Shown one piece after another: positions 5,939-55,303 of a DNA stretch of 64,000 nucleotides. Where the stretch lies: contig JAJEEM010000061.1 in NCBI GenBank assembly GCA_022820995.1, forward strand, positions 12,582 through 76,581, written 5' to 3'. Position 1 is the stretch's first letter, and each line of letters begins with the position of its first letter. The DNA is from Gemmatimonadota bacterium. GTDB taxonomy: Bacteria; Gemmatimonadota; Gemmatimonadetes; Palauibacterales; Palauibacteraceae. The notes under the pieces were generated by a model. It did no database searches, was not told the DNA's origin, and was given only the letters and a program-made list of their open reading frames with translations. The position numbers and the translations under genes were made by a program.

Positions 5939-7093
5939 TCAGTCGGCCAGTACTTCCGTCAGCGCGTCGGCCACCTCGTCGATCTGCGCTTCGGTGATCA
6001 CAAGCGGTGGCAGCAGCCGGATGACCGTCGTGCCGGCCGGGAGGGCGAGGACGCCGCGCTCCGCGAGGGCTTCCAGATAGGGGCGGCAGCGCTCGCGGAG
6101 TTCCACGCCGATCATGAGGCCGACCTGCCGCACGGCGCGCACGCGGGCCGGCCGGTGTCGGTCGAAACGCTCGCCGAAGCGGGCGCCCCGCGCCTCGGCC
6201 CGCTCGTCGAGCCGCTCGTCCCGCATGAAGCGGATCGCGGCCAGGGCGGCGGCGCAGGCGAGCGGATTGCCGCCGAAGGTCGTGCCGTGCCGCCCGGGTG
6301 CCGGCTGCAGCCGTCGGTGCGCCAGGACCGCCCCCAGGGGCACGCCGCCAGCGATCGCTTTGGCGAGGCAGAGGACGTCCGGCACGACGCCGTAGCGATC
6401 GCAGGCGAACATGCGGCCGGCGCGGCAGAAGCCCGTCTGGATCTCGTCGAACACGAGGACCGCACCGGCCTCGTCGCAGATGCGGCGCGCCGCCGACAGA
6501 TAGTCCGGGCTGGCCGGCCGCACCCCGCCCTCGCCCTGCACCGGCTCGATGATCACCGCTGCCGTGTCCTCTCCCACGGCCGCGCGCAGCTTCTCGACGT
6601 GGTTGAAGGGCACGAACGAGAATCCCGGAACGAGCGGCTCGAACGGCTCCCGGTACTCCTTCTTGTGCGTCGCGCTCAGCGCTCCCAGCGTTCGCCCGTG
6701 GAAGCCGCGCATCGCGGACACGACCCCCGCCCGTCCCGTCGCGAGGCGCGCGAACTTGATCGCCGCCTCCACCGCCTCCGCCCCGGAATTGCAGAGGAAG
6801 GCGCGCGTGAGCCCCGCCGGCGCGACCGAGACGAGTTCGGCCAGCAGCCGCGCCCGGACATCGTTGTAGAAGATCCCTGGACACGACACCAGCACGCGAG
6901 CCTGTTCCGCCAACGCCTCGGCGACGGCCGGGTTGGCGTGTCCGATGCTCGCCACGCCGATGCCGCCCACGCAATCGATGTACCGGCGACCCTCGTCGTC
7001 CCACACGCACGCGCCCTCGCCCCGCACGATCGCAATGTCGCGCTTCGGGAACACTTCGAGCGCGTACTCCCGCTCCGTCTCGCGCGTGTTCAT
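5939..7093 (-). CDS. lysJ: Acetylornithine/LysW-gamma-L-lysine aminotransferase (class III PLP aminotransferase)
   Basis: Class-III aminotransferase hallmarks (GIASIGH, 'VFDEIQTGFCRAGRMFA', PLP lysine region 'LCLAKAIAGGVPLGA'). It overlaps the upstream lysZ/argB by 4 nt. Confidence 0.85.
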   Translation of the reverse strand: MNTRETEREYALEVFPKRDIAIVRGEGACVWDDEGRRYIDCVGGIGVASIGHANPAVAEALAEQARVLVSCPGIFYNDVRARLLAELVSVAPAGLTRAFLCNSGAEAVEAAIKFARLATGRAGVVSAMRGFHGRTLGALSATHKKEYREPFEPLVPGFSFVPFNHVEKLRAAVGEDTAAVIIEPVQGEGGVRPASPDYLSAARRICDEAGAVLVFDEIQTGFCRAGRMFACDRYGVVPDVLCLAKAIAGGVPLGAVLAHRRLQPAPGRHGTTFGGNPLACAAALAAIRFMRDERLDERAEARGARFGERFDRHRPARVRAVRQVGLMIGVELRERCRPYLEALAERGVLALPAGTTVIRLLPPLVITEAQIDEVADALTEVLAD

Positions 7094-7902
7094 CCGATGA
7101 CCGTGCCCCGTCCGGCCAGCGCCTCCGTGACCGGCCGTTCGACGCGCCCGTCCGCGATGACCACGCGCGTCGCGCCCGATTCCACGAGTCGCCGCAGGGC
7201 GAGCAGCTTCCGCTTCATGCGCCCGGTGACCTCGCCTTCCCGGCGGGCAAGCTCCCCGCGCTCGAGCCGTGCGACGACGGACGCCGGATCGTCGGGGTCC
7301 TCGAGGAAGCCGGGCGCCTCGATCAACTGGATCACGCAGTCCGCTCGCAATTCGTCGCTCAGCAGGGTCACGACGTCGTCGTTCTCCGAGTTGATCGCCA
7401 CGTTGCGTTCGTCGATGAGGGGCACGGTCACCACGGGTGTGAACCCGCCGTCGAGGAGCAGTCCCATCAGCTTGCGGTTCACTTCCACCGGCTTCCCGGA
7501 CAGGTCCCGCCTGATCAGCGTCTTGCCGCCCTCTCTCACCCGGATTCCCCGGTTGCGGCGGCCGCGCACGAGCGCGCCGTCGAGCCCGGTGAGCCCCACC
7601 GCGTTCACGCCCTGACCCTGCAGCAGTTCCACGATTCGCTTGTTGCGCAGGCCCGCGTAGGCCATGAGCATCACGTCGATCAGGTCGCGGTCGGAATGTA
7701 CGCTCTCGTGTCCGGAAACCGACGTGAGGATGCGCTTCTCGACCCCGAGCCTCCGGGCGAGGGAATCGCGCAGCGCGTTCGCCCCGTGCACGATGACGAA
7801 CGGACCGGGCAGGCCCCCCAGGTCGCGAGCGATCCCGTCAAGATTGATGGATTCCCCGCCGCCGATCTTGACGAGCGTCAACCCGCCGGATTCCCCAGGC
7901 AT
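7090..7902 (-). CDS. lysZ: Amino-acid kinase family: acetylglutamate kinase / [LysW]-aminoadipate kinase
   Basis: N-terminal 'LVKIGGG' nucleotide-binding motif and AAK-fold pattern (VIVHGANA...LTGLDG...). Sits inside the lysW cluster. Confidence 0.85.
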   Translation of the reverse strand: MPGESGGLTLVKIGGGESINLDGIARDLGGLPGPFVIVHGANALRDSLARRLGVEKRILTSVSGHESVHSDRDLIDVMLMAYAGLRNKRIVELLQGQGVNAVGLTGLDGALVRGRRNRGIRVREGGKTLIRRDLSGKPVEVNRKLMGLLLDGGFTPVVTVPLIDERNVAINSENDDVVTLLSDELRADCVIQLIEAPGFLEDPDDPASVVARLERGELARREGEVTGRMKRKLLALRRLVESGATRVVIADGRVERPVTEALAGRGTVIG

Positions 7903-7905
7903 CGG

Positions 7906-8553
7906 TCAGAACGTCCCGATGGCGCCGTTGGCCACGGGCGTCCACGTTCGCCGCCCGTCCGGATCCGGATACGGCGCCGAGCACAGGATCCCCACGCCGT
8001 CCCCGTGGGCGGCATGCATCCGGAAGTAGTCCGGGTCCTCGTTGAATCGGGTCGCGAAGTGGACCCGCCGCGACGCGTCGGCGACGATGAGATTCATCGC
8101 CCGCACGTAACGGGTGCGCTTCTCGATCGCAGCGAGTCCCCGCTCCAGCGCGCGACCCATGTCTCCGTCATCGAAGCGCTTGACGAAGTTGAACACCTTC
8201 TCCGCGCCGATCCGCCCCCGTTCCCTGATCCGCACACCGTGCAGCTCTCCGTTGAAGATGAACGCGCGTTCCCCGTCGAGGAACGGCATATTGTTCTCGA
8301 CCCGGATCCCCTCTCCGCGATACGCGCTCCTCGCATGGGCGAGCAGAAGCGTCGTGCGCCCGGACGGCGCCGCGGCGTCCTCCCAGACCGGCGAGATGTC
8401 GCGGTAGACGCGCCACCCGTCGGCATCGATCCACGCGCACCCCCACCCGTCGCCCTGGTACTCGGGACTCTCCCGGGCGAGTTGCGCGAAGGCGGTGAGG
8501 TGCGGCTCCATGTCGAAGGGCTCGTCGCTCCGGACGCAGAGGATGCGGCACAC
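7906..8553 (-). CDS. Class-II glutamine amidotransferase-like Ntn hydrolase (YafJ/EgtC-type), standalone
   Basis: Begins 'MCRIL' (N-terminal Cys nucleophile directly after Met) and is about 215 aa, typical of standalone GATase-2 domains. Located between lysY and lysZ. Confidence 0.6.
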   Translation of the reverse strand: MCRILCVRSDEPFDMEPHLTAFAQLARESPEYQGDGWGCAWIDADGWRVYRDISPVWEDAAAPSGRTTLLLAHARSAYRGEGIRVENNMPFLDGERAFIFNGELHGVRIRERGRIGAEKVFNFVKRFDDGDMGRALERGLAAIEKRTRYVRAMNLIVADASRRVHFATRFNEDPDYFRMHAAHGDGVGILCSAPYPDPDGRRTWTPVANGAIGTF

Positions 8554-8578
8554 GATGGATTCGGCTCCGCCCGTCGCG

Positions 8579-9601
8579 TCAGGCCGGGTGCAGTCCGGGG
8601 AACTCGAGCCCCCGCGACTCCGGCAACCCCTGCATCACGTTGAACGCCTGCACCGCCTGTCCCGCCGCTCCCTTCATGAGGTTGTCGATCGCGCTCAGGA
8701 CCACGACCCGGTTCGAGAGCGGATCGCGCTCGAACCCCACGTCGCAGTAGTTCGCGCCCGCCAGCAGGTTGGGGTCGGGAAAGCGGTGGATGCCGCTCCG
8801 CTCCTTGACGATGCGCACGAACGGTTCGTCGGCGTACGCGCTCCGATAGATCTTCCACAGCGCCTTCTCATCGAGATCCCGGTTCAGGAACACGTGACAG
8901 GTGGCGAGGACGCCGCGCACCATTTCAACCGCCGTCGCGGAGAAATGCACGTCGCCGCCGAGCACAGCGGCGATCTCGGCCGCGTGGCGGTGGCCGGTCG
9001 GCCGATACGACCGCATGGCGCCGCTGCGCTCCGGGTGGTGGCTGCCCTCGCTGGCGCGGTTCCCGGCCTCGCTCGATCCCACCTTGACCTCGATCACGAC
9101 CGAGTCCGCGACGCCCTCCCGGTACAGCGGCAGGAGCCCGAGGATGGAGGCCGTCGCGTTGCAGCCCGCACAGGCGACGAAGTCCGCGCCGGCCAGCGCC
9201 TCGCGGTTCACTTCCGCGATCCCGTACACGAACGACTCCAGGAGTTCCGGCCGAGGGTGCGGCCGGCCGTAGAAGCGCTCGTAGTCCGCACCGTTCCGGA
9301 GCCGGAAGTCGGCTCCCAGGTCGACGATCCGCCCCGCCAGCGACCGAAATCCGTCGATGCGTCGGGACGACTCCCCGTGCGGGAGGCAGAGGAAGAGCAC
9401 GTCGCACTCGGACAGCTCCTCGAGCGCGCTGAAGCGCAGTCGCGTGACGCCGCGCAGGTTGGGATGGACCCGGTGCGCGAACCGTCCCGCGAAGCGCTCC
9501 GACGTGATCTGCCGCACCTCGACATCGGGATGTCCGAGCAGGAGCCGCAGCAACTCGCCGCCGGCGTATCCCGAGCCGCCCGCGATCGACGCGCGGATCA
9601 A
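8579..9601 (-). CDS. lysY: N-acetyl-gamma-glutamyl-phosphate reductase / [LysW]-aminoadipyl-phosphate reductase
   Basis: NAD(P)-binding '[16 protein letters not shown]' N-terminus and catalytic Cys motif region '[10 protein letters not shown]'. Overlaps lysX by 4 nt. Confidence 0.85.
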
Positions 9602-10446
9602 CGGACCGCCGCCCGATCCGGCGAGACGACGTAGGATACGATCCTCTCCGGAATGTTCACGCCCGTCGCCTCGATGCTGTTCCGGAACTCCATCGTGTAA
9701 TTCACCTCGTTGACCAGCAGTTCGCCGCCGCTCTCGAGCAGATCCACCGCGACCACGCCCCCGCCCATGGCGGCCGCCGCCCGCAGGGAAAGCTCCGCGA
9801 TCTCGCTCGTCACCGGAAAGTTCGAGGCCGTTCCGCCGCGGGCCGTGTTCGTGATCCAGTGCTCGGACGACCGGTAGATGGCCGCCACGCAGTCGTCGCC
9901 CACGACGAACGCGCGGATGTCGCGCCCGCCCTTCTCGACGTACTTCTGCACGAAGAAGATCGAGTGATGATAGCTGCCCAGGATCGCCTTGTGTTCGAGG
10001 ACCGTCTCCGCCGCGTGCCGGTCGTTGATCCTCGACAGCAGGCGGCCCCAGGAGCCGACCGCGGGCTTGAGGACCACGGGATAGCCGAGTTCCTCAATGG
10101 CCTCGAGCGCGGATTCCTCGGTGAACGCGACCCTGGCTTCGGGCTGCGGCACACCGCATTCCCGGAGCGACGCCGCGGTGAGGATCTTGTCGCCGCAGCG
10201 GCGCGACACCTCGTAGCGGTTCACGCAATCGAGGCCGGCCCCCTCGAAGAGCCGCAGCGCGTGCATCGCCCGCGAGTGGTTGATGGAGCGCTCGAGGACG
10301 ACATCCACATCCGGGACGCTGCGGAAGTCGAACACGAGCCTGCGGTCGTCCAGAAACACCAGTTCGACGTCGCTGCGCCGGCGCAATTCCGCGATCAGCA
10401 GCTTCTCGTCCTTGCGGATGAGGGAATGAAGAAAGCCGACTCTCAT
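9598..10446 (-). CDS. lysX: RimK-family ATP-grasp ligase (alpha-aminoadipate/glutamate--LysW ligase)
   Basis: ATP-grasp/RimK architecture ([21 protein letters not shown]...). The start ATG overlaps the lysW stop (ATGA). The track ORF extends further 5' in low-complexity sequence, so the start was trimmed to MRVGF. Confidence 0.8.
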
Positions 10447-10607
10447 TCGCCCCAGTCCTCCTCCGCGTCCGGCGCCTCCCCCAGGGTGATGGGGTCGAGC
10501 GCGAGAATCTCGAGTTCGACGCCGCACTCCTCACATTCGAGGAGCTCGCCCTCGACGGGATCGTCGGAAATCGCCAGTTCGGCGTCGCAAACAGGACATA
10601 CGGACAT
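10443..10607 (-). CDS. lysW: LysW amino-group carrier protein (zinc-ribbon, C-terminal EDWGE)
   Basis: Small ORF absent from the track: M(DGM)[53 protein letters not shown] with a CxxC...CxxC zinc ribbon and the diagnostic acidic C-terminus ending EDWGE. GGAGG sits 9 nt upstream of the second ATG (10607). An alternative start lies at 10616. Confidence 0.75.
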
Positions 10608-10660
10608 GCCATCCATCCTCCACTACGGGGTTCTTCGCAAGAGAAAGGGGTTACGTACCG

Positions 10661-11365
10661 TCAGTCGGCTGCAGAGTTCCGGAAGGGAAGCCGCAGCGCC
10701 AGGAAGAGCCCGATGGCCACAGGTTCGAGTAGCAGAATATACCAGGGCCAGTCCGGGAAGAAGTCCAGTATCGATGCCGCCGGCGGCTTGTCGATGAGAT
10801 ACAGGTAGTTGGACCCGAGCACGCGATTGAGCGGATACAGCGCGACGGCGTACACGTTCATCAGGCCGAGCGCCAGCCAGGGATCGCGCGCCTTCGGCCG
10901 GTAGTCCTCCACCGTCACCGCCCATACGCCCGCAATGACGGCGATTCCGTGCGACGCCATCGTCTCGTAGAAGGCGAAGTGGTGAATGCCGTGCGCTGCA
11001 TCGGGCGTCAGCACGGCCTGGATCGCCCCCCCGACGCCGAAGAAGTACATGAGCCGAAGAGCCCACAGGTGCCGCGTCCACAGCCCGTACACCGTCAACC
11101 AGGCCATCGCCGCGCACAGGTGCAGCGGGAGGTCGTTCTGAACGGTCCATAGCCCCGCCGAGGCTTTCCACGTGTGCCTGAGGCCGAGGAGGAGGAGGAT
11201 CGCGGCGCCCATGGCGAAGCGGAGTCGGCGCCGCCGGTCCTCGTCGCCGGCCATGCCCGCCCGGATCAGACAGACGCCGACCGCGGCCAGCACGCCCATC
11301 GTCACGAGATGGACCGGGCTGAAGAGATCCAGCGGTACCGACTCCGTCCCGAAGAATTGGCTCAC
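10661..11365 (-). CDS. Polytopic membrane protein (TIGR02206/YwaF-like intramembrane family)
   Basis: Hydrophobic, about 6-7 TM segments, aromatic-rich (LHLCAAMAWLTVYGLW...). GTG start (VSQFFGTE) overlaps the stop of the upstream nagB-like gene. The longer ORF in the track is R-rich artefact in its N-terminal two thirds. Confidence 0.5.
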   Translation of the reverse strand: MSQFFGTESVPLDLFSPVHLVTMGVLAAVGVCLIRAGMAGDEDRRRRLRFAMGAAILLLLGLRHTWKASAGLWTVQNDLPLHLCAAMAWLTVYGLWTRHLWALRLMYFFGVGGAIQAVLTPDAAHGIHHFAFYETMASHGIAVIAGVWAVTVEDYRPKARDPWLALGLMNVYAVALYPLNRVLGSNYLYLIDKPPAASILDFFPDWPWYILLLEPVAIGLFLALRLPFRNSAAD

Positions 11366-13299
11366 GCGTCCGGGTCCGCGAGGGACGAAGTCGGGATTTC
11401 GGGCCCCTCCACCCTGCGGCCCTCCCGCAGCGTCACGTACGCCTCCATGGCGTAATAGGCCGGCAGGCCCAGTGCGGCGAGCCGGTTGGCGGTATCCCGG
11501 TTTCGTTCGACGACGCGCTGCCAGAATTCGCGCGGATCCGGTCCCGGGAAGGGGGCCAGATCCTTCTGCGACTCGTGTCGGAAGATCGCCTGGACCTTGC
11601 CGCGCAGTTCGCCTTCGGAGAGCGGCACGAGGACCGTCGCTTCGTCCAGGCTCCACTCCTGCCAGGCGCCGCGGTAGAGCCAGAGCCACGGCGGGTCGCC
11701 GCGGTAGCGGGCGAGCGCCGCCTCCACCGTCTCGAGACACATGCGGTGCGTGCCGTGCGGATCGGACAGGTCCCCGGCGGCGAACACGATCGTCGGCCGC
11801 ACCTCCTCCAACAGCCGCGCGACGATCTCCACGTCCTCCGACGTGATCGGGTTCTTCTTCACCGCTCCCGTCTGATAGAACGGCTGGTTCAGAAAGCGGG
11901 CGCGGTCGGCGGAGAGCCCCAGCGATTCGATCGCGGCCGTGGCCTCGGTCTCGCGGATGATCCGCTTGAGTTGCTGAACCACGCCGGGATCGACGCCCCC
12001 CGGCTCCTTGCGGGCAAGCCGGCCTTCGAGAGACCGCAGCACCCCATCGAGGTCCGCCGCGTCGCCGAGGTCGATGACGCCGGCCGCGCGCCGCAGGAAG
12101 TCCAGGTGCCGGCGCACCTCGTGGTCGAAGACGGCGATGTTCCCGGACGTCTGATACGCCACGGTGACGTGGTTGCCGTTCTCGACGAGTTTGCGCAACA
12201 GTCCGCCCATCGAGATCACATCGTCGTCCGGGTGAGGCGAGAAGACGACGATGTTCTGGCCGCGCGGCAGCCGGCTCTTCCCCCGGATCTTGGAGATGAG
12301 CGCGTTGAACACCTGTCCGTTGAGCGGCTCGGCCGAACCGTGCCTGGACGTGAGCGGGGCGAGGTGGTTCGCGCGATAGTCGTCGGTCGCGAGGTGCAGG
12401 ATCGACTTGTCGGTGCGTTCGCTCAGCCAGATGACGGCCGCGGTCTCGCGCTCCGCCGTCCACTCCACGTCGCCCACGAGCCACGGCGTGCGGACGCGGG
12501 TGAGATCGGAAGCGGCGGCCGGGTCGAGATAGACCGTCGCGGCGGCGTGCTGCTGAAGAAAGGTCGCGGCGACGTCCGCGTGGACCTCCCCCTCGACCGC
12601 TCGACGCACGATCCCGGCCTTGTGTTCGCCGGTCGCGAGCAGGACGACTTCCCGCGCTTCGAGGATCGTGGCCACGCCCATCGTGATCGCCTGCGGCGGC
12701 ACGTTCTCCTCGCCGAAGAAATCGGCGGCGGCGTCGCTCCGCGTGACGGTGTCCAGGTAGAGCCGCCGGGTGCGCGAGTCGCGCTCGGACCCCGGCTCGT
12801 TGAAGCCGATGTGACCGCTGCGCCCGATCCCGAGAATCTGCAAATCGATCCCGCCCGCCTGCCGGATTCGGCGCTCGTACTCGACGCAGTGGGCCTCGAC
12901 GTCCGCTTCCGGCACATCGCCGCGAGGGCCGTGGCATTGCTCGGGAGCGATGTTCACATGGTCGAACAGGTGCTCCCGCATGTAGCGGTGATAGCTGTGG
13001 AGGCTGCCGGGCCGCATCGGGAAGTACTCGTCGAGGTTGAAGGCGACCGCGTTGGAGAAGTCGAGTCCCTCGTCCCGATGCAGGCGGATGAGTTCCCGAT
13101 ACACGCCGACGGGCGTGGCGCCGGTGGCGAGGCCGAGAACGGCGGGGCTCCCGTTCTCGGCCCTCTCCCGCAGTAGAGCCGCGATCCGGCCGGCGACTTC
13201 GGCGGCGATGCTGTCGTGGTCCGGCATGACCCGGACCGGCACACGTTCCCTCCGCGCGTGTGCGGCGACGCTCATCCGATCATCCGCCGATCGTGGCAC
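11362..13299 (-). CDS. Glucosamine-6-phosphate deaminase-like domain fused to LmbE/PIG-L-type N-acetylglucosaminyl deacetylase domain
   Basis: N-terminal NagB/6-phosphogluconolactonase fold (GLATGATPVGVY...ILGIGRSGHIGFNEPGS). C-terminal 'VVFSPHPDDDVISMGGLL...PHGTH' zinc-dependent LmbE motif. The exact start is uncertain. Confidence 0.75.
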   Translation of the reverse strand: MPRSADDRMSVAAHARRERVPVRVMPDHDSIAAEVAGRIAALLRERAENGSPAVLGLATGATPVGVYRELIRLHRDEGLDFSNAVAFNLDEYFPMRPGSLHSYHRYMREHLFDHVNIAPEQCHGPRGDVPEADVEAHCVEYERRIRQAGGIDLQILGIGRSGHIGFNEPGSERDSRTRRLYLDTVTRSDAAADFFGEENVPPQAITMGVATILEAREVVLLATGEHKAGIVRRAVEGEVHADVAATFLQQHAAATVYLDPAAASDLTRVRTPWLVGDVEWTAERETAAVIWLSERTDKSILHLATDDYRANHLAPLTSRHGSAEPLNGQVFNALISKIRGKSRLPRGQNIVVFSPHPDDDVISMGGLLRKLVENGNHVTVAYQTSGNIAVFDHEVRRHLDFLRRAAGVIDLGDAADLDGVLRSLEGRLARKEPGGVDPGVVQQLKRIIRETEATAAIESLGLSADRARFLNQPFYQTGAVKKNPITSEDVEIVARLLEEVRPTIVFAAGDLSDPHGTHRMCLETVEAALARYRGDPPWLWLYRGAWQEWSLDEATVLVPLSEGELRGKVQAIFRHESQKDLAPFPGPDPREFWQRVVERNRDTANRLAALGLPAYYAMEAYVTLREGRRVEGPEIPTSSLADPDA

Positions 13300-13305
13300 A
13301 CGTCG

Positions 13306-16143
13306 CTAGGGGACCTTCTGCTCCGGAAGCAGCACGAACCGGGCGTACTGGTCGGTGCGGAGGTAACGGACGGCGGCCTGTTGCACCTGCTCCGCGGTCC
13401 AGCTCTCGATCCGCTCGTAGCTCGGGATCCCGTTCAGGTCCCGGCCGGCCCGCTCGAAGGAGGCCAGTTGCGACAGCCAATACCGGTTCTCCTGCAGGCT
13501 CGTCTCCTTCGCGCGGCGCTGCGTCTCGCGGACCTTGTCGACGGTCTCCGCGTCCGGTCCCTCCGCCTTCAGACGCTCGATCTCCTCGAACACGGCTTCG
13601 GACAACTCCTCCGCGCGTTCCGGATCCGACCCGAAGGAGATGGTGAAGCGGTACTCCTCGTCGGGCCGGTAGCTCAGCGACCCGCCGACGCCGACGCCGT
13701 AGGTGCCGCCGAGGTCTTCGCGCAGCACCTCCCGGAGGCGGATGTCCAGGACGTCCGCCATGGCCGAGATCGCGTTCGACTCCTCCAGCGAGTATTCCGC
13801 TTCGCCCGCGAAGATGATCTGCGTACGGCTCTGCGGCTCCAGACCCTTGTAGACGGTCGTTTCGATCGTCCCCGCGGGCGGATCGATCCCGAGGTCCCGC
13901 CAGGTCTCGACACGCCCGAGATTCGGAAGCGCCCCGAGATACTGCTCCACGAGCGGCCGGATCGTCGCGAGATCGAAGGCCCCCGTGAAGTAGAAAGTGA
14001 AGTCGCTCGCGTCCGCGAAACGGTCGAGATAGAAGTCGTACGCCGCGTCGAGATCGGCCTGCTCCAGGTACTCCGCAAACTGCGACAGCCTGATCACTCG
14101 TGGGTGCCCCTGCGACATCGTGGCCGAGACCGTGTCCGAGAACACGACACCGGGGTTTGCTCCCGCGTTCGCGAGGAACGCCGTCTGCTGGGCCTTCAGC
14201 GCCTCGAACATCGTCTCGTCCCGGCGCGGGGCGGAGAAGTACAGGTAGATGAGCTGGAACGCGGTTTCCACGTCCTGCGGAGACGCCGATCCACTGACCC
14301 CCTCCGACAGCGAGCCCACTGAAGCGGCGACGCGCACCGCCTTGCCGGCCAGCTTTTTCGTCAGCGCCGTCTGGTCGAACTCGCCGACGCCGGACTGGCT
14401 CACGACGCTGAGGGCGAACGACACGCGTCGGTAAAGGTCATCGGATATGATCGATGTGCCTCCGGGGCTCGTCGCGGAGAAGAGGATCTCGTCGTCCTTG
14501 AAGTCCGTGGGCTTGAGGACGACCCGGACGCCGTTCTCGAGGGTCCATATCGTGACCCCCACCTCGTCGAGGACCTCCTCGCTCGCGACGGGTACTCCAT
14601 CGGGAGCGACCGGAAGGAGCGGGGCATCGGCCGCCTCGTCCTCGTAGGCCTCGACCTCTCGCCCGCCCACGGCGGCGAACACGCCCAGGAGGTCGTCCTC
14701 CGACGGGGGTTCCAGGCCTTCCTTCGTGGGCGCGCTGGCGAGAACGACGCGTCCCTGCTCGGCCAGCCACGCCTGGGCGACGCCGTTCGTCTCCTCCAGC
14801 GTGATGCCGGGGAGGAAGGCGTCCACCAACTCCATCTGCGTCTCGAGGGCCGGGTAGGAGCTCCCCTGCAGGAACACCTGTATGTAGCGGCTCGCGAGCG
14901 CGCCGGACTCCTGGTTCTCCCGCTCGGCCAGGCGGCGTTCGTATCCCCGCCGGGTGTTGGTCTTTTCGCGGTCCAGTTCACTGTCGGTGAACCCGTTCTG
15001 AACGACGCGCTCGGCCTCGGTGAGGAGCGCTTCGAGCCCGCGCTCGATGCCGTCCTCGGCGACGACCGCGACGAGCTGGTAGGCATCCACGCCGCGCGCG
15101 AACTGCCCCTGGCCCGAAAAACCGAACATGAACGGCGGGTCGGCCTGGAGCCGGAGTTCGTTCAGCCGCGCGTTCAGCATGCCCGAGTAGAGCCCTTCGA
15201 CCAGACCGCGGCGGAAGTCGCCGATCGTGCCGCGCGGGGCGGGCGGCTGCTTGTACAGCACGCCGACCTGGCTTCCCGGCGCTTCGGGGTCGGTCGCGAT
15301 CGTGACGAGCGGCGGATGGTCGATCGGGACTTCGACCGCAATCCGGGGACGCGGTTCCGCGGGGCCGGTCAGCCCTGCGAACCGCTCGCGAATCGTCGCT
15401 TCGATTTCGGCGCCGTCAAAATCGCCGACGGCGATGATCGCCATCAGATCCGGCCGGTACCAGTCCTCGTAGAAGCTGCGCAGCCGCTCGGCGGGCGCCG
15501 TCTCGAGGATCTCCGGCTTCCCGATCGGGAGTCGCTCCGCATACAGCGACCCCTGGAAGAGGACCGGGAATTGCCGGTCCTGTATCCGCGCTCCGGCCCC
15601 CCGCCGTCCGCGCCATTCCTCGATCACGACCCCGCGCTCCTTGTCGACCTCCTCCGGGTCGAAGAGCACGCCCTGGGCCCAGTCCTCGAGGATTCGGAAC
15701 GCGGTGGCCAGCATCTCCGGGTCGTCCATCGGCACCTGGAGCATGTAGACCGTCTCGTCGAAGCTCGTGTACGCGTTGATATCGGGGCCGAACTGCATGC
15801 CGATCGACTCGAGATAGTCGACGAGCGCCTGCTTCTCGAAGTTCTCCGTGCCGTTGAACGCCATGTGCTCGACGAAATGCGCGAGCCCGAGCTGGTTTTC
15901 GTCCTCGAGGATGGAGCCCGCGTTCACGACGAGGCGCAGTTCCGCCCGGTTCTCAGGCTGATCGTTCTCGTGCACGAAATAGCGCAGGCCGTTGTCGAGC
16001 GTCCCGGTGATGACGGCCGGGTCCGGCGGAATCGGGTCCGTCGGGGCCGGGGTCTGCGCCGCCGCTCCGGGAGCGGAGAGGGACGAGAGGAGGATGACGG
16101 CGATCGAAACGAAAGCGAAGCCGGGCAAGCGGGACGTCTTCAT
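13306..16143 (-). CDS. Secreted M16 (pitrilysin/insulinase) family zinc peptidase, two-unit (about 945 aa)
   Basis: Signal peptide MKTSRLPGFAFVSIAVILLSSLSAPGAAAQ. Inverted zinc motif 'HFVEHMAFNG' (HxxEH), and a second inactive M16 half. Confidence 0.85.
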   Translation of the reverse strand: MKTSRLPGFAFVSIAVILLSSLSAPGAAAQTPAPTDPIPPDPAVITGTLDNGLRYFVHENDQPENRAELRLVVNAGSILEDENQLGLAHFVEHMAFNGTENFEKQALVDYLESIGMQFGPDINAYTSFDETVYMLQVPMDDPEMLATAFRILEDWAQGVLFDPEEVDKERGVVIEEWRGRRGAGARIQDRQFPVLFQGSLYAERLPIGKPEILETAPAERLRSFYEDWYRPDLMAIIAVGDFDGAEIEATIRERFAGLTGPAEPRPRIAVEVPIDHPPLVTIATDPEAPGSQVGVLYKQPPAPRGTIGDFRRGLVEGLYSGMLNARLNELRLQADPPFMFGFSGQGQFARGVDAYQLVAVVAEDGIERGLEALLTEAERVVQNGFTDSELDREKTNTRRGYERRLAERENQESGALASRYIQVFLQGSSYPALETQMELVDAFLPGITLEETNGVAQAWLAEQGRVVLASAPTKEGLEPPSEDDLLGVFAAVGGREVEAYEDEAADAPLLPVAPDGVPVASEEVLDEVGVTIWTLENGVRVVLKPTDFKDDEILFSATSPGGTSIISDDLYRRVSFALSVVSQSGVGEFDQTALTKKLAGKAVRVAASVGSLSEGVSGSASPQDVETAFQLIYLYFSAPRRDETMFEALKAQQTAFLANAGANPGVVFSDTVSATMSQGHPRVIRLSQFAEYLEQADLDAAYDFYLDRFADASDFTFYFTGAFDLATIRPLVEQYLGALPNLGRVETWRDLGIDPPAGTIETTVYKGLEPQSRTQIIFAGEAEYSLEESNAISAMADVLDIRLREVLREDLGGTYGVGVGGSLSYRPDEEYRFTISFGSDPERAEELSEAVFEEIERLKAEGPDAETVDKVRETQRRAKETSLQENRYWLSQLASFERAGRDLNGIPSYERIESWTAEQVQQAAVRYLRTDQYARFVLLPEQKVP

Positions 16144-16379
16144 CGATAACTCTCGGCAAAAGGAAGTAGCCTCCGGGGTGGAGGCCACCAAGATAGCCGA
16201 CGTTCCCCGGGGGCGCATACGCGACGGGAAGGCCATGCGGGTCTGGCCGGATTCGAGCGCCGGATGCGACACTGGTGTACGGTTCGCGCGCACCCGCAGC
16301 TGTGGACGGCGGTGAATCGCTCGCTTCGGGTCGAATACGGGGAAGGGGAGGAACGAGTCGTGCTCAACAGCGGTTCGAC

Positions 16380-20400: not shown

Positions 20401-20644
20401 TTCCGGACGGGAGTCCCGTAAGGGCGTAGACCCCGTCCGTAGAGCTGAGGGCCGTACGCGATTCGCCCCCGAGCGGCGGCCCGGTCGCCGTCACGCTCAC
20501 CGTGGGCAGGGCGAGGCCGTTCTCGTCGGTGACCGTCCCGCCGATGGCGCCGTCCTGGGCGAGGGCGGCCGCCGGCCACACAAGCGCAAGAGCGGTAGCG
20601 AGTCTGACTCTGAGCATGCTTTTTCTCTCGATCTTCATGGTCAT
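17420..20644 (-). CDS. TonB-dependent outer-membrane receptor with N-terminal carboxypeptidase-regulatory-like domain (SusC/RagA-like)
   Basis: Signal peptide (MTMKIERKSMLRVRLATALALVWPAAALAQD). CarbopepD_reg-like beta-sandwich ('GTVTDENGLALPTVSVTA...DGVYALTGLPSGSYSL'), plug region ('LNGRRQVY...IEVLKGASAIYGSDAVAGVANFVTR'), and a long beta-barrel with aromatic-rich C-terminal strands. The start overlaps the amidase stop. Confidence 0.8.
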   Translation of the reverse strand: MTMKIERKSMLRVRLATALALVWPAAALAQDGAIGGTVTDENGLALPTVSVTATGPPLGGESRTALSSTDGVYALTGLPSGSYSLRFVYPGFSVETRAGVAVTAGDRTVVDVELVSLRTVTLQELTAVVTGTHFAAPPISLPYAVDVSTRESMQEEGSPLVVDFFKRLGANHGSLGERNSWYNRSGTLVPETVASVNLRGLGASRSLVLLNGRRQVYTPSRLPGGRFVDVNAFPSIALDRIEVLKEGASAIYGSDAVAGVANFVTRRDFEGFEATAAHDYFSGAGDSNAAAIWGGRMGSTNVVLSAEWAARRELKPQERDWGLRPYPGPGGGGWSYYGNPGAFLMPTLTGNETPGQFVSALIDSQFGADPSLFVDPECENFGGVNEGVTCRFRYQPYDNLIDKQNHVRAFAEINSELGTGTTLHLEGLWSEATIPDWLTTPSFPPISLYDGNQIVPSANPGRQAFCAANAAHAGFASAADCLEDDWYFYGRMVGNSGPGRTLHRSSRTQRIAASLDRHFEATEGHLDISFSYSRATGNVNQPAEYAYRKHLAFRGFGGPNCGVDVVVDPTSPSGMSLGPTGGAVAGQGNCMFYNPFSNAIQRAEQPGTRYTDADNPGYVAGGANSAELIDWINEEVDLFNTADLFVAEATFTGQFTETLGYALGYQFRRFDVTGTPNDPGNQAINPCQVPGDRTCLEQAGPFTFTTGYFPYEDGQTVHRFFGEIPLSFGDRLDVQVAANYEFHDVASSFDPKVSVRLNLTESDDHQLSLRGSLQSTFRVPSVDDVNTDQITALEYVQEVDVYKAVDTFGNPDLDPERAVTGNVGLIFFHYPSRLQATFDYWTYDFRDVINVIPHSSITSLYHQGGASRAAVQEFVKCPDGWNTGTCDSALIERIRIDLINWPGMQTSGFDWSLSTRRTLGNGELSLGIDGTYTRTYDIKALQFNNVELVGATEGAGKLNRFNPLAWPLPRWKWSTSVGYHGERYSAIGNVNYISSYEDDLNAGDPTYAHRVIDAFATFDATLMMRLTDDIDAFVTGFNLFDSAPPLVNQEGAYDGLTHDPKGRRIKAGMTYTIN

Positions 20645-22278
20645 CGTATCTCCGGGAAGCCGTCCGGGGGACGGCGGTGTCGTGTCGCCTGTTCGTATCC
20701 GTACGCGAGCCGGAAGAGGAGCCCATCGTCGTACGGACGGGCGAGAATCTGCAGCCCCGCCGGAAGCTCGCCGTAAGCGTACCCCATCGGGACCGTGATC
20801 GCGGGCATCCCGGTGGCGGGAGCCACGCGCTGGCTGTTGTCGCCGCAGTATTCCTCGTCCCCCCTGTCGATAGGGGCGGGCACGCAGAGCCACGACGGGT
20901 AGAGGATCGCGTCCACGCGCTCGGCATCCATCGCTTCCACGAGGCTCGCCAGGTAGGCCTGCCTGCCCTCGTTCTCCGCGTAGTCCGGGCACGGCTCGTC
21001 CCATTCGGAAGGATGTACATCGAGCGGGGCGCCCTCGTTCCGCCGCAGCGACGCCTGCGCGTAATCGGAGTATCGTCCGTCCTCCAGCACCTCGAGGACG
21101 TCGGTCATCGGCGCCGCGGGGCCCAGCGACCGCAGGTAGACCCACATGTCGTAACGGAAGCGACGGCAGAACATCCCCTCCCGCCCAAGTTCCGCTGCGA
21201 CGTCGAAATCGAAGGGGTCGACAATCTCGGCTCCCAGTGCCGCCAGGTCGTCGATCGCCGCTTCGAAGAGTGCGAGAATCTCGCCGTCGGCCTCCTCCGG
21301 ATCCGCCAGCGCGCGCAGGACGCCGATCCTCGCGCCCCGCGCCCCGTCGGCGTCCAGGAAGGCCGCGTAGTCCTCTTCGCCGCGGCCACGCCCCGCTTCC
21401 GTATACGGATCCGCGGGATCGTAGCCGGCCACGACATCGAACACGCGCGCGACATCCTCCACGGTTCGCCCCATCGGACCTGCGATATCGCGGTCGAAGG
21501 AGAGGGGGATGACCCCGTCGCGGCTCGTGAGGCCGATCGTCGACCGGATCCCGACCAGGGCGAGGTGGGAACTGGGTCCACGGATCGAGTTGCCGGTGTC
21601 GCTGCCCAGCCCGATGACGCCGAACGAGGCGGCGACCCCCGAGGCCGTGCCGCCGCTGGATCCGGCCGGGACGCGGTCGAGCGCGTAGGCGTTGCGCGTC
21701 GTGTCGAAGGAGGAACTGACGGACTGACGCGGACTGAACGCCCATTCCGCCATGTTGGTCTTGGCGATCACGATTGCGCCGGCCTCGCGGATCTTCCGCA
21801 CCATGAAGGCGTCGTCGGGCGGAAGGTTGTTCGCGAGCGCGATGGACCCTCCGGTCGTGACCATGTCGTGCGTGTCGAAGTTGTCCTTGACGAGCATCGG
21901 GACGCAGAAGAGCGGTCCCATCGTCTCGCCGGCGGCCTGCGCCGCGTCGAGCCGGTCCGCGCGCTCGAGAGCCCGGGGGTTGAGCACGGTGATCGCGTTG
22001 ATCGCGTCTTCGTAGGCTGCGATCCGGGCGAGATGCCCTTCTACGACCTCGCGGCAGGTCGTCGTCCCGGCGCGGATCGCCGCCTGCACGTCGCCGATCG
22101 TCGCCTCCACGACCTCGAAGACCGCGCCGGTCCCGGCGCCGGGGTCGGGAGAGCACGCGACCCACCCCCACGCGAGCGCAGCGGACAGCAGCGCCGGGGC
22201 CGAGCGGTGCTTCCACCGCACGCCGTCAGCGATCCGGAGACGCCAGGGGGTCCCGGATGCGTTGCTCCTCGGTTGCAT
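20641..22278 (-). CDS. Amidase-signature (AS) family amidase, exported/lipoprotein-like
   Basis: AS motif 'GGSSGGTASGVAASFGVIGLGSDTGNSIRGP' and Ser-cisSer-Lys context. The N-terminus has a hydrophobic segment ending 'WVAC'. Confidence 0.8.
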   Translation of the reverse strand: MQPRSNASGTPWRLRIADGVRWKHRSAPALLSAALAWGWVACSPDPGAGTGAVFEVVEATIGDVQAAIRAGTTTCREVVEGHLARIAAYEDAINAITVLNPRALERADRLDAAQAAGETMGPLFCVPMLVKDNFDTHDMVTTGGSIALANNLPPDDAFMVRKIREAGAIVIAKTNMAEWAFSPRQSVSSSFDTTRNAYALDRVPAGSSGGTASGVAASFGVIGLGSDTGNSIRGPSSHLALVGIRSTIGLTSRDGVIPLSFDRDIAGPMGRTVEDVARVFDVVAGYDPADPYTEAGRGRGEEDYAAFLDADGARGARIGVLRALADPEEADGEILALFEAAIDDLAALGAEIVDPFDFDVAAELGREGMFCRRFRYDMWVYLRSLGPAAPMTDVLEVLEDGRYSDYAQASLRRNEGAPLDVHPSEWDEPCPDYAENEGRQAYLASLVEAMDAERVDAILYPSWLCVPAPIDRGDEEYCGDNSQRVAPATGMPAITVPMGYAYGELPAGLQILARPYDDGLLFRLAYGYEQATRHRRPPDGFPEIR

Positions 22279-22338
22279 ACATCTAAACTTGCCACATCGC
22301 ACCGATATGCCAAGCGCCAGGACCGTGAGGTGTCGCCG

Positions 22339-25279: not shown

Positions 25280-26740
25280 TCAGCGGCCGGGTCTCCACGC
25301 GGATTCCTCCGAGGCATCCGCGGGCCCGATCCTGCCCTCCGCCATCGCGAGCAGCTCGTCCGGCGAATGAAGGCGTCCCCGCGCGAAGACGTACCAGACG
25401 TCGCGCGCGGCCCGGACATCCTCCAGCGGGTTCCCCCGCACGATCACGAGGTCCGCGATCTTTCCCTCCTCGATGCTGCCGAGTTCGTCATCGAGGCCCA
25501 TCGCGCGCGCCGAGTTGAGGGTCGCGATGCGGAAGACATCCGCCGGCGGGACCCCGGCGCGCGCGAGGGCGAGGAGTTCGCGGTGTACGGCGAACGGCGA
25601 CCAGTACCGCCCCCAGCTCGGGTGATCCGTGCCGAGCGTGACCAGGTCGCGTCCCCCGCCATCGTGGAAGGCCTTCAGCGTCCGGCGCTTGATCGGCGAC
25701 ATCAGCGCGAACGACTCGTTCACGGGGCGGGGCGGACGGGCCTCGACGATCTCCCGCATGTACGGCGTCAGAAAGCGAAGCTCGTCCGTCCAGTACTCCG
25801 TCATCTCCGGATCGTGCGGACCCCAGTATCCGTAGATGGAGAGCGTGGCGTCGAAGTACACGCCACGGTCGACGTAGAGATCGATGATGTCGCGGAGCGC
25901 GTCCCCCTCGAAATCGTCGAACTCCTGCAGCGAAGCGTAGGCCGTGCGGTCGGCCGGCAGCATGTCGCCCCCGAGGAAGTGCTCGACACGGTCGATGCCC
26001 ATGAGGATCGCGTCGCGGGGGTTCACCGTGTTCCCGAACCCGGAGTCGAGGTGGGCGGTGACGGTGAGCCCGTGCACGTGGGCCTGTTCGATGAGCACGG
26101 AGAGATGTTCCGGGCGGGCCCCCTTGGCCTTGAAGCCCGCCGCGCCCTGCGCCGCCCAGTGGTCCACTTCCCGCCGGATCGAATCGGCGGTCATCGCGGC
26201 GTCGTCCCAGCCCCGCCGCCAGGATCCGAAGTAGGGGCCGGAGTTGAGGAGCCGGGGACCCGTACGCTCGCCGCGCTCGATCGCGAGCCGCAGTTCCCGC
26301 ATGCGGAGCGGGTCCATCTCGCCGGCCGGGAACGTCGTCGTCACGCCATTGGCGAGGAAGAGTTCGGGATAGGCGGCCGTCTCATCGACGCGGCCATCGC
26401 CGAACAGGTCCACCGCATAGTGGGCGTGGAGGTCGAAGAACCCCGGAAGGATCGTCGCGTCCCCGTCGAGGTGGATCGTAATCGTGACGTTTGCGTCATC
26501 CTCCGGAGGGCCGATGGAGACGATCCGCCCGTCGCGAATCGTGATGCCCTCGTTATCGACGAGCGTGCCGGTGTGCACGTCCAGCCAGTGACCCCCCGTG
26601 ACCACGTAGGTCGCGTTCTCATCCACGAGATCGACGAGGTCCATCACGACCCCCTCGCACCCCGCAAGGGTCGAGAACAGGCCGCCGAGTCCCATCGCGA
26701 GGAACGACCGCCTCCGCTGCATCCGCTGTCTCCGAACCAT
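25280..26740 (-). CDS. Amidohydrolase-superfamily metallo-hydrolase (TIM-barrel), exported
   Basis: 'DLHAHY' metal-ligand HxH motif near the N-terminus of the barrel, and a later 'VTAHLD'/'GTDHP' His/Asp ligand pattern. N-terminal signal-like segment. The start could be at the internal MQRRR. Confidence 0.75.
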
Positions 26741-28126: not shown

Positions 28127-29919
28127 TGAATCGATCGAACCCCTCCGTCGTCGCATTGGCCGGCACCGTCGTCGTGTTGGCCGGCGCCGTGTTGGCTGGC
28201 GCCGCCCTCTCTGCCTGCGGGGGGTCGCCGCCGCCGGACCCGGCCGACCTGATCCTCGTGGACGGACGCGTGATCACGCTCGACGCGGAGAGCCGCGTGG
28301 CCGAAGCCGTGGCGGTGCGCGGCGAACATGTCGTGGCCGTCGGCGCGACGTCGGAGATCGAAGCGCTCGCGGGCCCGGAGACCCGCCGCATCGACCTCGC
28401 CGGGCGCGCGATGACGCCCGGCCTTATGGACGCGCACGTCCACTTCGCGAACGGCGGCGCGAACCGCCTGTACCGCCTCGACCTCAGCTATCCGAACGTG
28501 GAGAACATCGCGGACGTACAGGGCATGGTCGCGGAGCAGGCCGGGCGGCTGCCCGAGGGCGAGTGGGTGCGCGGCGGCGGCTGGGACGAAGGGAAGCTCG
28601 AGGAGTTGCGCTACATTTACGCCTCCGACCTGGACGCCGTCGCCGCGGGGCAGCCCGTGTGGCTGGCGCACACGATGGGCCACTACGGCGTGGCCAACTC
28701 CCTCGCCCTCGACATGGCGGGCATCACGGCCGAGACGCCCGATCCGCCCGGCGGCACGATCGACCGCGACGCGGCCGGGCAGCCGACCGGCGTCCTCAAG
28801 GAGTCCGCGATGGGTCTCGTGACCCGCCTCATCCCGTCGCTCGGACCCGGCGAGCGGCGCGAGGGGATCCGCGCGCTCGCCGACGCCTTCAACGCCGAGT
28901 GCATGACCGGCGGCAAGGACCCCGGAATCGGCCGCCGCACGTGGGAGGCCTACCGCGATGTCCTCGCCGACGGCGACCTCTCGGTGCGGATCTTCGCCCT
29001 GTGGGACGCCCGCGACGGGACGCCGGACGACGTCCGCGCCTACGCCGACAGCCTCGCGGCCTTCACGCGGCCCTACGAGTCGACGGGGGACGACCGGCTC
29101 ATCGCCGGCGGCGTCAAGTTGTACATCGACGGCAGCGGCGGCGCCCGCACGGCCTGGCTGTACGAGGACTGGAACCGGGAGCGCACCGGGACCGACACCG
29201 GCAATCGCGGCTATCCGACGATGGACCCGGACGAACTGCGCCGCCGCTTCCGGGCCTATCACGACGCCGGCCTCCACGTCTCGATCCACTCCATCGGCGA
29301 CCGCGCGATCGACTGGACCGTCGACAGCTTCATCGAGGCGCTCGAGGCCACCCCCACCCGCGGGCTCCGGCACGGGATCATTCACTCGAACATCCCCACG
29401 GACCGCGCGCTCGACGCGATGGCAGAACTCCAGCGGGAATGGCAGGCCGGCTACCCGGAGCCGTCCCCCACCTTCACGTGGTGGATCGGAGACACCTACG
29501 CGGGGAACTTCGGGCCCGAGCGAACGCTGCGGCTGAATCCGTTCCGCTCCTACCGGGACCGGGGCATGATCTGGGCGAGCGGTTCCGACTTCTTCGTCAC
29601 TCCCTACCCGGCGCGCTACGGCGTCTGGGCCTCCGTCGCCCGCCAGCCGCTGCTCGGCGTCTACGGGAGCGACCCGTACGGCACCGCCGAGTCCGTCGAT
29701 GTCGAGACGGCCCTGCGCTCGTTCACGACCTGGGCCGCGCACCAGATGTTCCTCGAGGAGAAAGTCGGGACGATCGAACCCGGAAAGTACGCGGATCTCG
29801 CGGTCTGGGACCGCAACCCGCTCACCGTCCCGACGATCGAACTGCGTGACCTGTCGTGCGAGATGACCGTCTTCAACGGGGAAGTCGTTTTTGACCGCGC
29901 GAGCGTCCCCGCACCATGA
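28123..29919 (+). CDS. Amidohydrolase-3 (YtcJ-like) metal-dependent hydrolase, lipoprotein
   Basis: Lipobox-like 'AGAALSAC', 'GLMDAHVHF' HxH motif, and a large inserted domain typical of the Amidohydro_3 family. ATG overlaps the MFS stop. Confidence 0.8.
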   Translation: MMNRSNPSVVALAGTVVVLAGAVLAGAALSACGGSPPPDPADLILVDGRVITLDAESRVAEAVAVRGEHVVAVGATSEIEALAGPETRRIDLAGRAMTPGLMDAHVHFANGGANRLYRLDLSYPNVENIADVQGMVAEQAGRLPEGEWVRGGGWDEGKLEELRYIYASDLDAVAAGQPVWLAHTMGHYGVANSLALDMAGITAETPDPPGGTIDRDAAGQPTGVLKESAMGLVTRLIPSLGPGERREGIRALADAFNAECMTGGKDPGIGRRTWEAYRDVLADGDLSVRIFALWDARDGTPDDVRAYADSLAAFTRPYESTGDDRLIAGGVKLYIDGSGGARTAWLYEDWNRERTGTDTGNRGYPTMDPDELRRRFRAYHDAGLHVSIHSIGDRAIDWTVDSFIEALEATPTRGLRHGIIHSNIPTDRALDAMAELQREWQAGYPEPSPTFTWWIGDTYAGNFGPERTLRLNPFRSYRDRGMIWASGSDFFVTPYPARYGVWASVARQPLLGVYGSDPYGTAESVDVETALRSFTTWAAHQMFLEEKVGTIEPGKYADLAVWDRNPLTVPTIELRDLSCEMTVFNGEVVFDRASVPAP

Positions 29920-33985: not shown

Positions 33986-34004
33986 TCCGGGCCCGCTCCG
34001 GCGC

Positions 34005-36727: not shown

Positions 36728-36847
36728 CGCGTTCCCCCCGAATTCCTTCCTCCCGCGGCCGGCCGCTCCATGGGCCGCGGGCTATCGACACATCCGATCC
36801 ACCGCCCGAAGATAGGTCTGGTTCAACCGAGATGCAGGAGATTCAAC

Positions 36848-43580: not shown

Positions 43581-43618
43581 GGGGCAGCCTCGGTCGAAAG
43601 GTCGAAAAGGGAGAACCG

Positions 43619-55281: not shown

Positions 55282-55303
55282 GGGCCTGACACAGGGAGAT
55301 CGG

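Follow-up and report, generated by a model that had tools for sequence, protein, structure and literature searches.

A class-II amidohydrolase gene embedded in a LysW-type amino acid biosynthesis operon of a Gemmatimonadota bacterium, a candidate for the missing carrier-release step

Layout of the LysW operon

The 64,000-nucleotide stretch of Gemmatimonadota DNA analysed in this work (hereafter “the window”; contig JAJEEM010000061.1 of assembly GCA_022820995.1) harbours six consecutive, co-directional open reading frames (ORFs) on the minus strand, between positions 5939 and 10616, in the order lysW-lysX-lysY-X-lysZ-lysJ (Table 1). All six had been listed at these positions in a preliminary description made from the sequence alone, and all of them exist. 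The G+C content is approximately 0.68-0.71, and the nearest relatives are “Candidatus Palauibacter” metagenome-assembled genomes (MAGs), which are sponge- and marine-associated Gemmatimonadota. Judged by the families to which its products belong, the region is a genuine LysW (amino-group carrier protein) amino acid biosynthesis operon. The LysW pathway itself is an established one, which KEGG annotation had already placed in Gemmatimonadota. The fourth gene, called X here, was the key feature overlooked by the preliminary description, and it encodes the best candidate for the release step that is missing from the cluster.

Table 1. Coordinates of the operon genes and of other features of the window, with the profile matches that support them.
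Feature	Position	Strand	Profile evidence
lysW, amino-group carrier protein	10443..10616	-	TIGR01206 56.6 bits (cut-off 53.2); PF21344 Zn_ribbon_LysW 55.9 bits
lysX, RimK-type ATP-grasp ligase	9598..10446	-	TIGR02144 328.3 bits (cut-off 275.6)
lysY, ArgC-family semialdehyde-forming reductase	8579..9601	-	TIGR01850 376.8 bits; Semialdhyde_dh + Semialdhyde_dhC_1
gene X, 215-aa stand-alone class-II N-terminal nucleophile (Ntn) amidohydrolase	7906..8553	-	Pfam GATase_4 28.8 bits
lysZ, [LysW]-aminoadipate/glutamate kinase (amino-acid kinase fold)	7090..7902	-	NF010659 233.9 bits (cut-off 223)
lysJ, class-III aminotransferase (LysW-semialdehyde to LysW-Lys/Orn)	5939..7093	-	TIGR00707 438.9 bits (cut-off 410)
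Peptidase/amidohydrolase stretches	13306-16293, 20641-22302, 25280-26740, ~28130-29919, 32384-33235, 36800-38371, 40256-42184, 43565-47234, 55169-58803		
Sodium:dicarboxylate symporter	53042-54304		

The assignment of the region to a LysW module, already proposed in the preliminary description, was borne out by the profile searches: LysW and LysX passed TIGR01206 and TIGR02144 respectively, and LysX, LysZ and LysJ fell into LysW-type families and not into the classical ArgB and ArgD families. LysW showed the two CxxC motifs of a zinc ribbon (CPVC...CEEC) and the C-terminus EEDWGE. Its true start is probably the ATG at 10607 (54 aa) rather than the ATG at 10616, since the GGAGG at 10621-10617 abuts the latter yet lies 9 nt before the former, and since the public annotation of L002, a locus 99% identical to it, has a protein of 54 aa. 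LysX contained a GSWGR motif (VGSWGRLL), and its best match in the Protein Data Bank (PDB) was the LysX of Thermus thermophilus (3vpd/1uc8; E 1e-84, aligned over 269 residues). The lysY gene starts with TTG and has identical boundaries in the public calls of L002; its product was assignable to the ArgC family only, and no LysY-specific model was matched. LysZ failed the argB model (111 bits vs. a cut-off of 151), and the best model for LysJ was LysJ_Th_th (473.5 bits, under its cut-off of 700).

Overlaps of 4 nt (ATGA/GTGA) had been reported at almost every junction, which was overstated: they were present at three of the five junctions (ATGA for lysW/lysX and lysZ/lysJ, TTGA for lysX/lysY), none of them was GTGA, and gaps of 25 nt and 3 nt separate X from lysY and lysZ respectively. 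No lysine riboswitch, T-box or other leader was found by Rfam searches of the window and nine related loci, and there was therefore no regulatory clue to the product.

The X protein and its association with LysW

X starts with a GTG at 8553, and its N-terminus (MCRIL) places a putative nucleophile, Cys2, directly after the initiator; there was no fused or adjacent synthase domain. The exact-sequence lookup of the window protein returned no recorded match. An exhaustive search of 1.84 billion representative proteins delimited a compact X family: 399 proteins reached E<=1e-3, of which 198 had E<=1e-10, and those listed were mostly 200-230 aa long and matched from residue 1. In an alignment of 49 diverse members (25-71% identity), nine residues were invariant (C2, R3, W57, R75, P90, N101, G113, G116 and N154) and a further group nearly so (M1, L5, F22, Q33, G36, W37, G38, P55, H73, F100, G102, Y176 and S192), with G102 conserved in at least 90% of the sequences. 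The N-terminal “MC” was present in 49 of the 49 members, and M1-C2-R3 was invariant or nearly invariant there and in 29 further paired sequences. No Asp or Glu was invariant, or conserved at 90% or more, across the 49 members.

Many public gene calls (P0001, P0013, P0017 and others of ~198-208 aa) start X at the internal Met15 (ATG) and not at the codon corresponding to GTG 8553, with the loss of what in the window is 8512-8553. This start removes the invariant Cys2. Most such entries lack a Pfam annotation, the names given by NCBI to the family are “hypothetical protein”, and these gene calls may be one reason why the family stayed unannotated.

The AlphaFold2 (AF2) model of X (pLDDT 96.8, pTM 0.92) adopted the four-layer alpha-beta-beta-alpha Ntn fold. 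The top PDB matches with Foldseek were EgtC structures (4zfl/4zfj), with TM up to 0.80 and E 6e-13; next came 1te5, which is YafJ-like, then 3mdn and the glutaminase domains of GlmS, GFAT and PurF (TM 0.62-0.75); the probability was 1.00 for EgtC, 1te5, 3mdn, GlmS and PurF. X failed the EgtC equivalog model TIGR03442 (44 bits vs. a cut-off of 218.65), and no egt genes were found near it, its neighbours being genes of the LysW pathway.

In GlmS, R73 binds the alpha-carboxylate of the substrate, N98 and G99 form the oxyanion hole, and D123 (“TDSE”) binds the free alpha-amino group of glutamine. X was compared with these positions by profile alignment to 3mdn and by hhalign to a GlmS sequence whose numbering reproduces the published catalytic positions. 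The HARSA of X aligned with HTRWA (Arg75 corresponding to GlmS Arg73) and its FNGE with HNGI (N101-G102 corresponding to the N98-G99 oxyanion hole), while in the profile alignment the invariant Gly116 stood opposite the Asp of 3mdn GSTDSE, equivalent to GlmS Asp123. From the NG strand to the following helix there were 15 residues in X vs. 25 in class-II glutaminase domains, X having one helix fewer in this interval.

When one genome was scanned for each GTDB species, at least 586 were found to encode a relative of X; the loci were searched with a 10-sequence X alignment as the query. The best 80 of these (at least 586) genomes belonged to Gemmatimonadota (Palauibacter, Longimicrobiales), Acidobacteriota (Vicinamibacteria, Marinacidobacterium) and gammaproteobacterial MAGs. 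X adjoined lysY within lysW-lysX-lysY-X(-lysZ-lysJ) in 83 of the 83 genome-derived loci, from three phyla. LysW-pathway genes were beside X in 129 of 129 loci, down to 28% identity (127 by a same-strand pathway-gene test; in the other two the contig is short and lysW directly follows X); these loci came from Gemmatimonadota, Acidobacteriota, Gammaproteobacteria, Ignavibacteria of the Melioribacter roseus type and one archaeal-looking contig. There were two main orders: lysX-lysY-X-lysZ-lysJ in 93 of them, and Z-J-X, with X behind lysJ in the usual position of lysK, in at least six. Distant members, with 28-47% identity to the window X, remained associated with the pathway in various arrangements: lysJ-X at 28% (P0240), lysW-HCS-like-lysX-lysY-lysZ-lysJ-X at 30% (P0204, locus L089; HCS, homocitrate synthase), X-lysW at 31% (P0198), lysY-X-lysZ-lysJ at 35% (P0162), the order of the window, also at 35%, in the archaeal-looking contig (P0167, locus L090), and X-lysZ-lysJ at 47% (P0124). 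The median identity to the window protein was 67% for X and 70% for LysZ, so that both were conserved to about the same extent.

Some of these clusters had peculiarities of their own. In L089, a 56-aa LysW-like ORF (362-532) had no cysteines, and hence no zinc ribbon, and still ended in DEDWGE. Seven gammaproteobacterial MAGs (L061, L066, L070, L071, L077, L082 and L083) carried lysW-lysX-lysY-Ntn only, with neither lysZ nor lysJ within 8 kb. A contig of the Melioribacter roseus P3M-2 type (L211, 9833-15703) carried lysW-HCS-lysX-lysY-X-lysZ-lysJ, and this cultured thermophile is a ready experimental model. The genome paper of Caldithrix abyssi describes a LysWXZYJ+Hcs locus and a possible non-orthologous displacement in lysine synthesis; the locus, Cabys_3146-3153, has eight genes for these six names.

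A variant of the carrier protein was also found. In five gammaproteobacterial genomes (L061 4308-4472, L066 6843-7007, L070, L071 and L077), LysW ended in EEDWGQ (CAG codon before the stop) in place of EEDWGE. A metagenome scan for AP..EEDWGQ-stop gave at least 120 loci; among those listed (L091-L210), 119 had an ORF ending in DWGQ and 118 also two CxxC motifs, so that LysW-Gln is encoded in at least 118 metagenome loci. LysW-Gln loci ranged from 28 to 71% G+C, and at least six switches between E and Q were counted on the LysX tree. X was detected in 6 of 12 loci with 2-3.5 kb of sequence downstream of lysW, in 14 of 15 with 3.5-6 kb and in 21 of 21 with 6 kb or more, which gives 35 of 36 for loci with at least 3.5 kb, a count that covers LysW-Gln loci only. 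The single exception (L186, 6313-7994) had two unrelated ORFs, of 133 and 409 aa, between lysY and lysZ, the latter alpha/beta-hydrolase-like by eye, and no lysJ nearby. LysW-Glu was found in 77 of the 82 X-carrying clusters of the genome set, and the LysW of the window also ends in Glu. The string EDWGQ was found in no paper of the literature searched.

A Gln terminus would need prior deamidation, because LysX, an ATP-grasp enzyme, must activate a carboxylate and cannot use a carboxamide. X is the obvious candidate for this deamidase, since it has a glutaminase fold that appears to tolerate a peptide-bonded alpha-amine.

Proposed role of X and product of the pathway

The residues, fold and gene neighbourhoods described above tip the balance slightly in favour of X hydrolysing gamma-amides at the C-terminus of LysW, so that product release, the usual task of LysK, would fall to X, together with the deamidation of a pro-LysW ending in Gln. 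By family membership, LysX would join the substrate amino acid, most likely alpha-aminoadipate (AAA) and possibly glutamate, to the terminal Glu of LysW through the gamma-carboxyl of that residue; LysZ would phosphorylate the carrier-bound intermediate, LysY would reduce it and LysJ would transaminate it. X would then supply the step for which LysK is lacking. After removal of Met1, Cys2 is proposed to attack the gamma-carbonyl of the terminal LysW residue, the leaving amine being lysine or ornithine, or ammonia in the case of LysW-Gln, and hydrolysis of the resulting LysW-thioester would regenerate LysW-Glu. Arg75 may hold the free alpha-carboxylate of the C-terminal residue, while the lack of the Asp would leave space for the Gly that precedes this residue and would suit a residue whose alpha-amine is peptide-bonded. 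An enzyme attacking from the acyl (LysW) side would be indifferent to the leaving group; lineages with X could therefore tolerate the change from E to Q at the LysW terminus (“pro-LysW”), which would explain the occurrence of LysW-Gln with X.

The module had been called complete-looking in the preliminary description, which does not hold for the classical pathway, since no gene of the cluster encodes the LysK step. The accompanying statement that no M20-type LysK is visible in the cluster was upheld: Pfam searches, which covered most window ORFs, detected no M20 domain in the six operon genes or in the other ORFs scanned. No M20 gene was found in any X-type cluster, the 129 X loci included, when the window and 210 related loci were searched by phmmer with an Escherichia coli DapE sequence and by a PROSITE-like regular expression, a procedure of limited sensitivity; the sole match was weak (L137 1699-3075, E 0.004), on the opposite strand and 3.7 kb upstream of lysW. 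In an independent, published KEGG orthology matrix of 48 Palauibacterales MAGs (PMC10469786, supplementary file 10), K05826-K05830 were present in ~19 MAGs, and the rows passed directly from K05830 to K05837, with no row for K05831 (LysK).

An alternative that we consider unlikely is that X acts only in the maturation or repair of LysW, and that an unlinked M20 hydrolase (ArgE/LysK-like) releases the product. The LysW-Gln requiring repair might be encoded as such, or might be formed by ammonia capture of the acyl-phosphate intermediate of LysX. The co-occurrence of LysW-Gln and X is explained equally well in this way, and lysK is likewise unlinked to the main lys cluster in Thermus. Genes for K01438 (ArgE-like M20) and K01439 (DapE-like M20) are moreover present, in one or two copies, in exactly those Palauibacterales MAGs that are LysW-positive (PMC10469786), so that an unlinked M20 enzyme could still perform the LysK step; K01438 is found in some LysW-negative MAGs as well, and is hence not tied to the pathway. 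A role in repair alone also fits poorly with the 77 of 82 clusters with LysW-Glu, which need no deamidase and yet keep an X conserved about as well as LysZ, with the terminal, lysK-like position of X in several clusters, and with the presence of an M20 gene in 0 of 129 clusters; EgtC, the nearest structural match, acts on a substrate whose leaving group is bulky. Besides the M20 genes of the LysW-positive MAGs, the evidence for release by X is weakened by the limited sensitivity of the M20 search, by the restriction of the metagenome count to LysW-Gln loci, and by locus L186, a LysW-Gln locus with no X within 5.7 kb downstream. The assignment of Gly116 to the position of the Asp is also alignment-dependent, as a single-sequence alignment shifts the register onto Asp129; this residue is not conserved in the family, and the alpha-amino-binding Asp therefore has no conserved counterpart in either register.

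That X might simply be a gamma-glutamyl amidase or glutaminase for small molecules, like EgtC or YafJ, which travels with the operon and supplies glutamate or ammonia or acts on an unrelated gamma-glutamyl compound, is very improbable. It has the fold and the catalytic residues of enzymes that hydrolyse glutamine and gamma-glutamyl amides, and LysJ needs an amino donor (glutamate), but such an enzyme would be expected neither to remain linked to LysW genes across bacteria and an archaeal-looking contig, through reordering and down to 28% identity, nor to belong to a family that lacks an acidic residue for binding a free alpha-amino group. The failure of X against the EgtC model, the lack of egt genes nearby and of a synthase partner domain point in the same direction, and LysW-Gln would be left unexplained.

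Two further candidates were considered and rejected: X as the ammonia-donating subunit of an amidotransferase, because it has no synthase partner and LysJ already performs the amination, and an operon for secondary metabolites based on an amino-group carrier protein (DADH-type), because there are only six genes and the neighbours are housekeeping or catabolic.

Hydrolysis by X at the LysW terminus would have a broader meaning. We regard as evenly balanced the proposal that X is the founding member of a LysW-specific family of Ntn cysteine hydrolases, which would replace LysK in many bacterial phyla and some archaea and, as LysW-Gln deamidases, would constitute a pro-carrier mechanism of the Pup/Dop kind, the first in primary metabolism. 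Neither X as a member of the pathway nor LysW-Gln was described in the literature found by searches on LysW with amidotransferase, Ntn or EgtC and on aminoadipate or lysine in Melioribacter. If the proposal is true, X closes a pathway hole, as LysW clusters without LysK are currently scored as incomplete. In Palauibacterales, for example, the auxotrophies commonly predicted include one for lysine, and the assignment would alter the auxotrophy and cross-feeding predictions for abundant bacteria of marine, sponge and sediment habitats. X would also represent a second solution to release in carrier-protein pathways, by a thiol acyl-enzyme instead of a metallopeptidase, in a type of pathway that serves natural-product building blocks too. 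LysW-Gln suggests that biosynthetic carrier proteins can be made as inactive precursors, paralleling Pup. The interest should be high for specialists in amino acid biosynthesis and carrier proteins, for whom Melioribacter roseus and Caldithrix abyssi are available as cultured carriers.

The preliminary description had left the choice between lysine and ornithine undecided, rightly so, as the signals still conflict; the role proposed for X is the same in either case. Lysine has about an even chance of being the product, ornithine a somewhat smaller one, and the formation of both accounts for the remainder. The specificity residues of LysX, which the preliminary description had suggested examining, were of the Thermus, lysine-type: a five-residue motif is F-I-T-NS in LysX, I-Y-V-GF in ArgX and Y-I-T-NA in bifunctional enzymes (PMC12998189), and the window protein, mapped on the alignment with T. 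thermophilus, has F180-I190-T201-N256-S257, the AAA-specific motif. F-[IV]-T-NS was present in 82 of the 82 related loci. In work on haloarchaeal ArgX the last two motif residues were Ala-Leu, and motif swaps left the specificity unchanged, so the motif is not the sole determinant. A synthase gene lay in or adjoining 18 related X-type clusters, one of them near the cluster in a Gemmatimonadota MAG; the seven synthases tested all had homocitrate synthase TIGR02146 as their best match, all under its cut-off, and the synthase of the Melioribacter roseus-type locus contained an HCS_D2 domain. Among the scanned ORFs of the window there was no homocitrate synthase, homoaconitase, homoisocitrate dehydrogenase (HICDH) or AAA aminotransferase. 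A search with the HCS-like protein of L058 recovered its own clade and Ignavibacteria/Melioribacter, with no Palauibacter match, and is uninformative on the genome of the window.

Synthesis of ornithine for arginine from glutamate (the LysW/ArgW route), and not of lysine, is a credible though less favoured possibility, for which the Palauibacterales matrix (PMC10469786) provides most of the evidence. In this matrix argF, argG and argH are present in nearly all of the 48 MAGs, whereas argB, argC, argJ and argD occur in the column of one LysW-negative MAG only (column 8), bar one extra argC (K00145) call. The orthologs of homocitrate synthase, hacAB and HICDH that were searched for are not in the file, K01705 (homoaconitate hydratase) is found in LysW-negative MAGs only, and the LysW-positive MAGs possess asd, dapB, dapE, dapF and lysA. 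For related marine Gemmatimonadota, a published study inferred that ornithine is made by the LysW-glutamate route, and the Thermus LysZ and LysY accept LysW-Glu intermediates according to the literature. The same matrix also contains entries that argue against ornithine: dapA is missing from the LysW-positive MAGs, and a second leuB-like copy, a candidate for HICDH, is found only in these MAGs, though ilvC is absent. In addition, the LysX motif differs, in all of the 82 loci, both from the I-Y-V-GF of ArgX and, in its last two residues, from the haloarchaeal Ala-Leu, LysZ passes the [LysW]-aminoadipate kinase equivalog model, and HCS-like synthases lie in or by 18 X-type clusters, with a synthase also in the Melioribacter roseus-type locus. 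As to the other entries of the matrix, leuB and leuC are present in most MAGs, the visible ilvC entries are all zero and leuA is nearly absent; the LysW-negative MAGs have argF, argG and argH without any annotated ornithine route.

Outside the operon, the genes upstream of lysW are conserved across Gemmatimonadota (10661-16293 in the window; L001, L002 and many other loci) and encode a TMEM164-like membrane protein, a glucosamine-6-phosphate isomerase/PIG-L fusion (11362-13299) and an M16 peptidase. The gap between lysW and the nearest of them is only ~45 nt, and lysW may be co-transcribed with them. The window is unusually dense in peptidases and amidohydrolases (M16, an amidase, five Amidohydro_1/2/3 proteins, M48, beta-lactamase-fold, S9 and S15), which, together with the symporter (Table 1), suggests a peptide- and amide-scavenging lifestyle. 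The highest G+C of the window (0.735) was at 33882-36727, where the AT skew was strongly positive (+0.19) and two long ORFs, 33882-35684 (+) and 35507-36727 (-), had no Pfam match. An N6/N4 DNA methylase (51825-52781) and a protein with Schlafen AlbA_2 and HATPase_c_4 domains (58841-60637), at which the G+C dips to 0.645, may belong to a mobile or defence-related island.

Comparison with known systems

The cluster resembles the LysW-LysX/Z/Y/J/K lysine pathway (via AAA) of T. thermophilus in the LysX match (E 1e-84), the identical five-residue motif, the aminoadipate-kinase type of LysZ and the zinc ribbon and EDWGE terminus of LysW. It differs in the lack of LysK, in the embedded Ntn gene, in the order W-X-Y-Ntn-Z-J and in its hosts, which are Gram-negative, marine or sponge-associated Gemmatimonadota and not Deinococcus-Thermus. 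LysK, an M20 homologue of ArgE and DapE known from Thermus, Sulfolobus and Thermococcus, cleaves the isopeptide bond by which lysine or ornithine is attached, through its alpha-amino group, to the gamma-carboxyl of the terminal Glu of LysW, and so regenerates LysW. This is the reaction proposed for X, which takes the terminal position of the operon in several X-type clusters. The chemistries are unrelated, a metal-dependent M20 fold in LysK as opposed to a metal-free N-terminal Cys nucleophile in X, and we infer that LysK cannot deamidate a Gln terminus, whereas a nucleophile acting from the acyl side could.

The best structural match of X, EgtC of ergothioneine biosynthesis (4zfj/4zfl), is likewise a stand-alone enzyme with a Cys2 nucleophile, and it hydrolyses a gamma-glutamyl amide with the release of a bulky amine. 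X shares only ~20% identity with it, lacks both the egt context and any conserved acidic residue for a free alpha-amino group, and would act on a protein C-terminus instead of a small molecule. With the class-II glutaminase domains of GlmS, PurF and AsnB, X has in common the Ntn fold, a Cys1 nucleophile, an oxyanion hole formed by Asn-Gly and an Arg that binds the alpha-carboxylate of the substrate; unlike them, it has no synthase domain, no Asp for the alpha-amino group and one helix fewer.

The likeness to the Dop/Pup system of Actinobacteria lies in the logic of the system and not in family membership, and concerns the activities that X is presumed to have. Pup is a small acidic protein which is conjugated via the gamma-carboxyl of its C-terminal Glu, and which many species encode with a terminal Gln that is deamidated first. 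Dop is a deamidase and an isopeptidase in one, and is retained in species whose Pup ends in Glu. Dop has an ATP-binding, glutamine-synthetase-like fold and is not an Ntn hydrolase, and the conjugation of Pup marks proteins for degradation, while the function of LysW is to protect an intermediate of biosynthesis.

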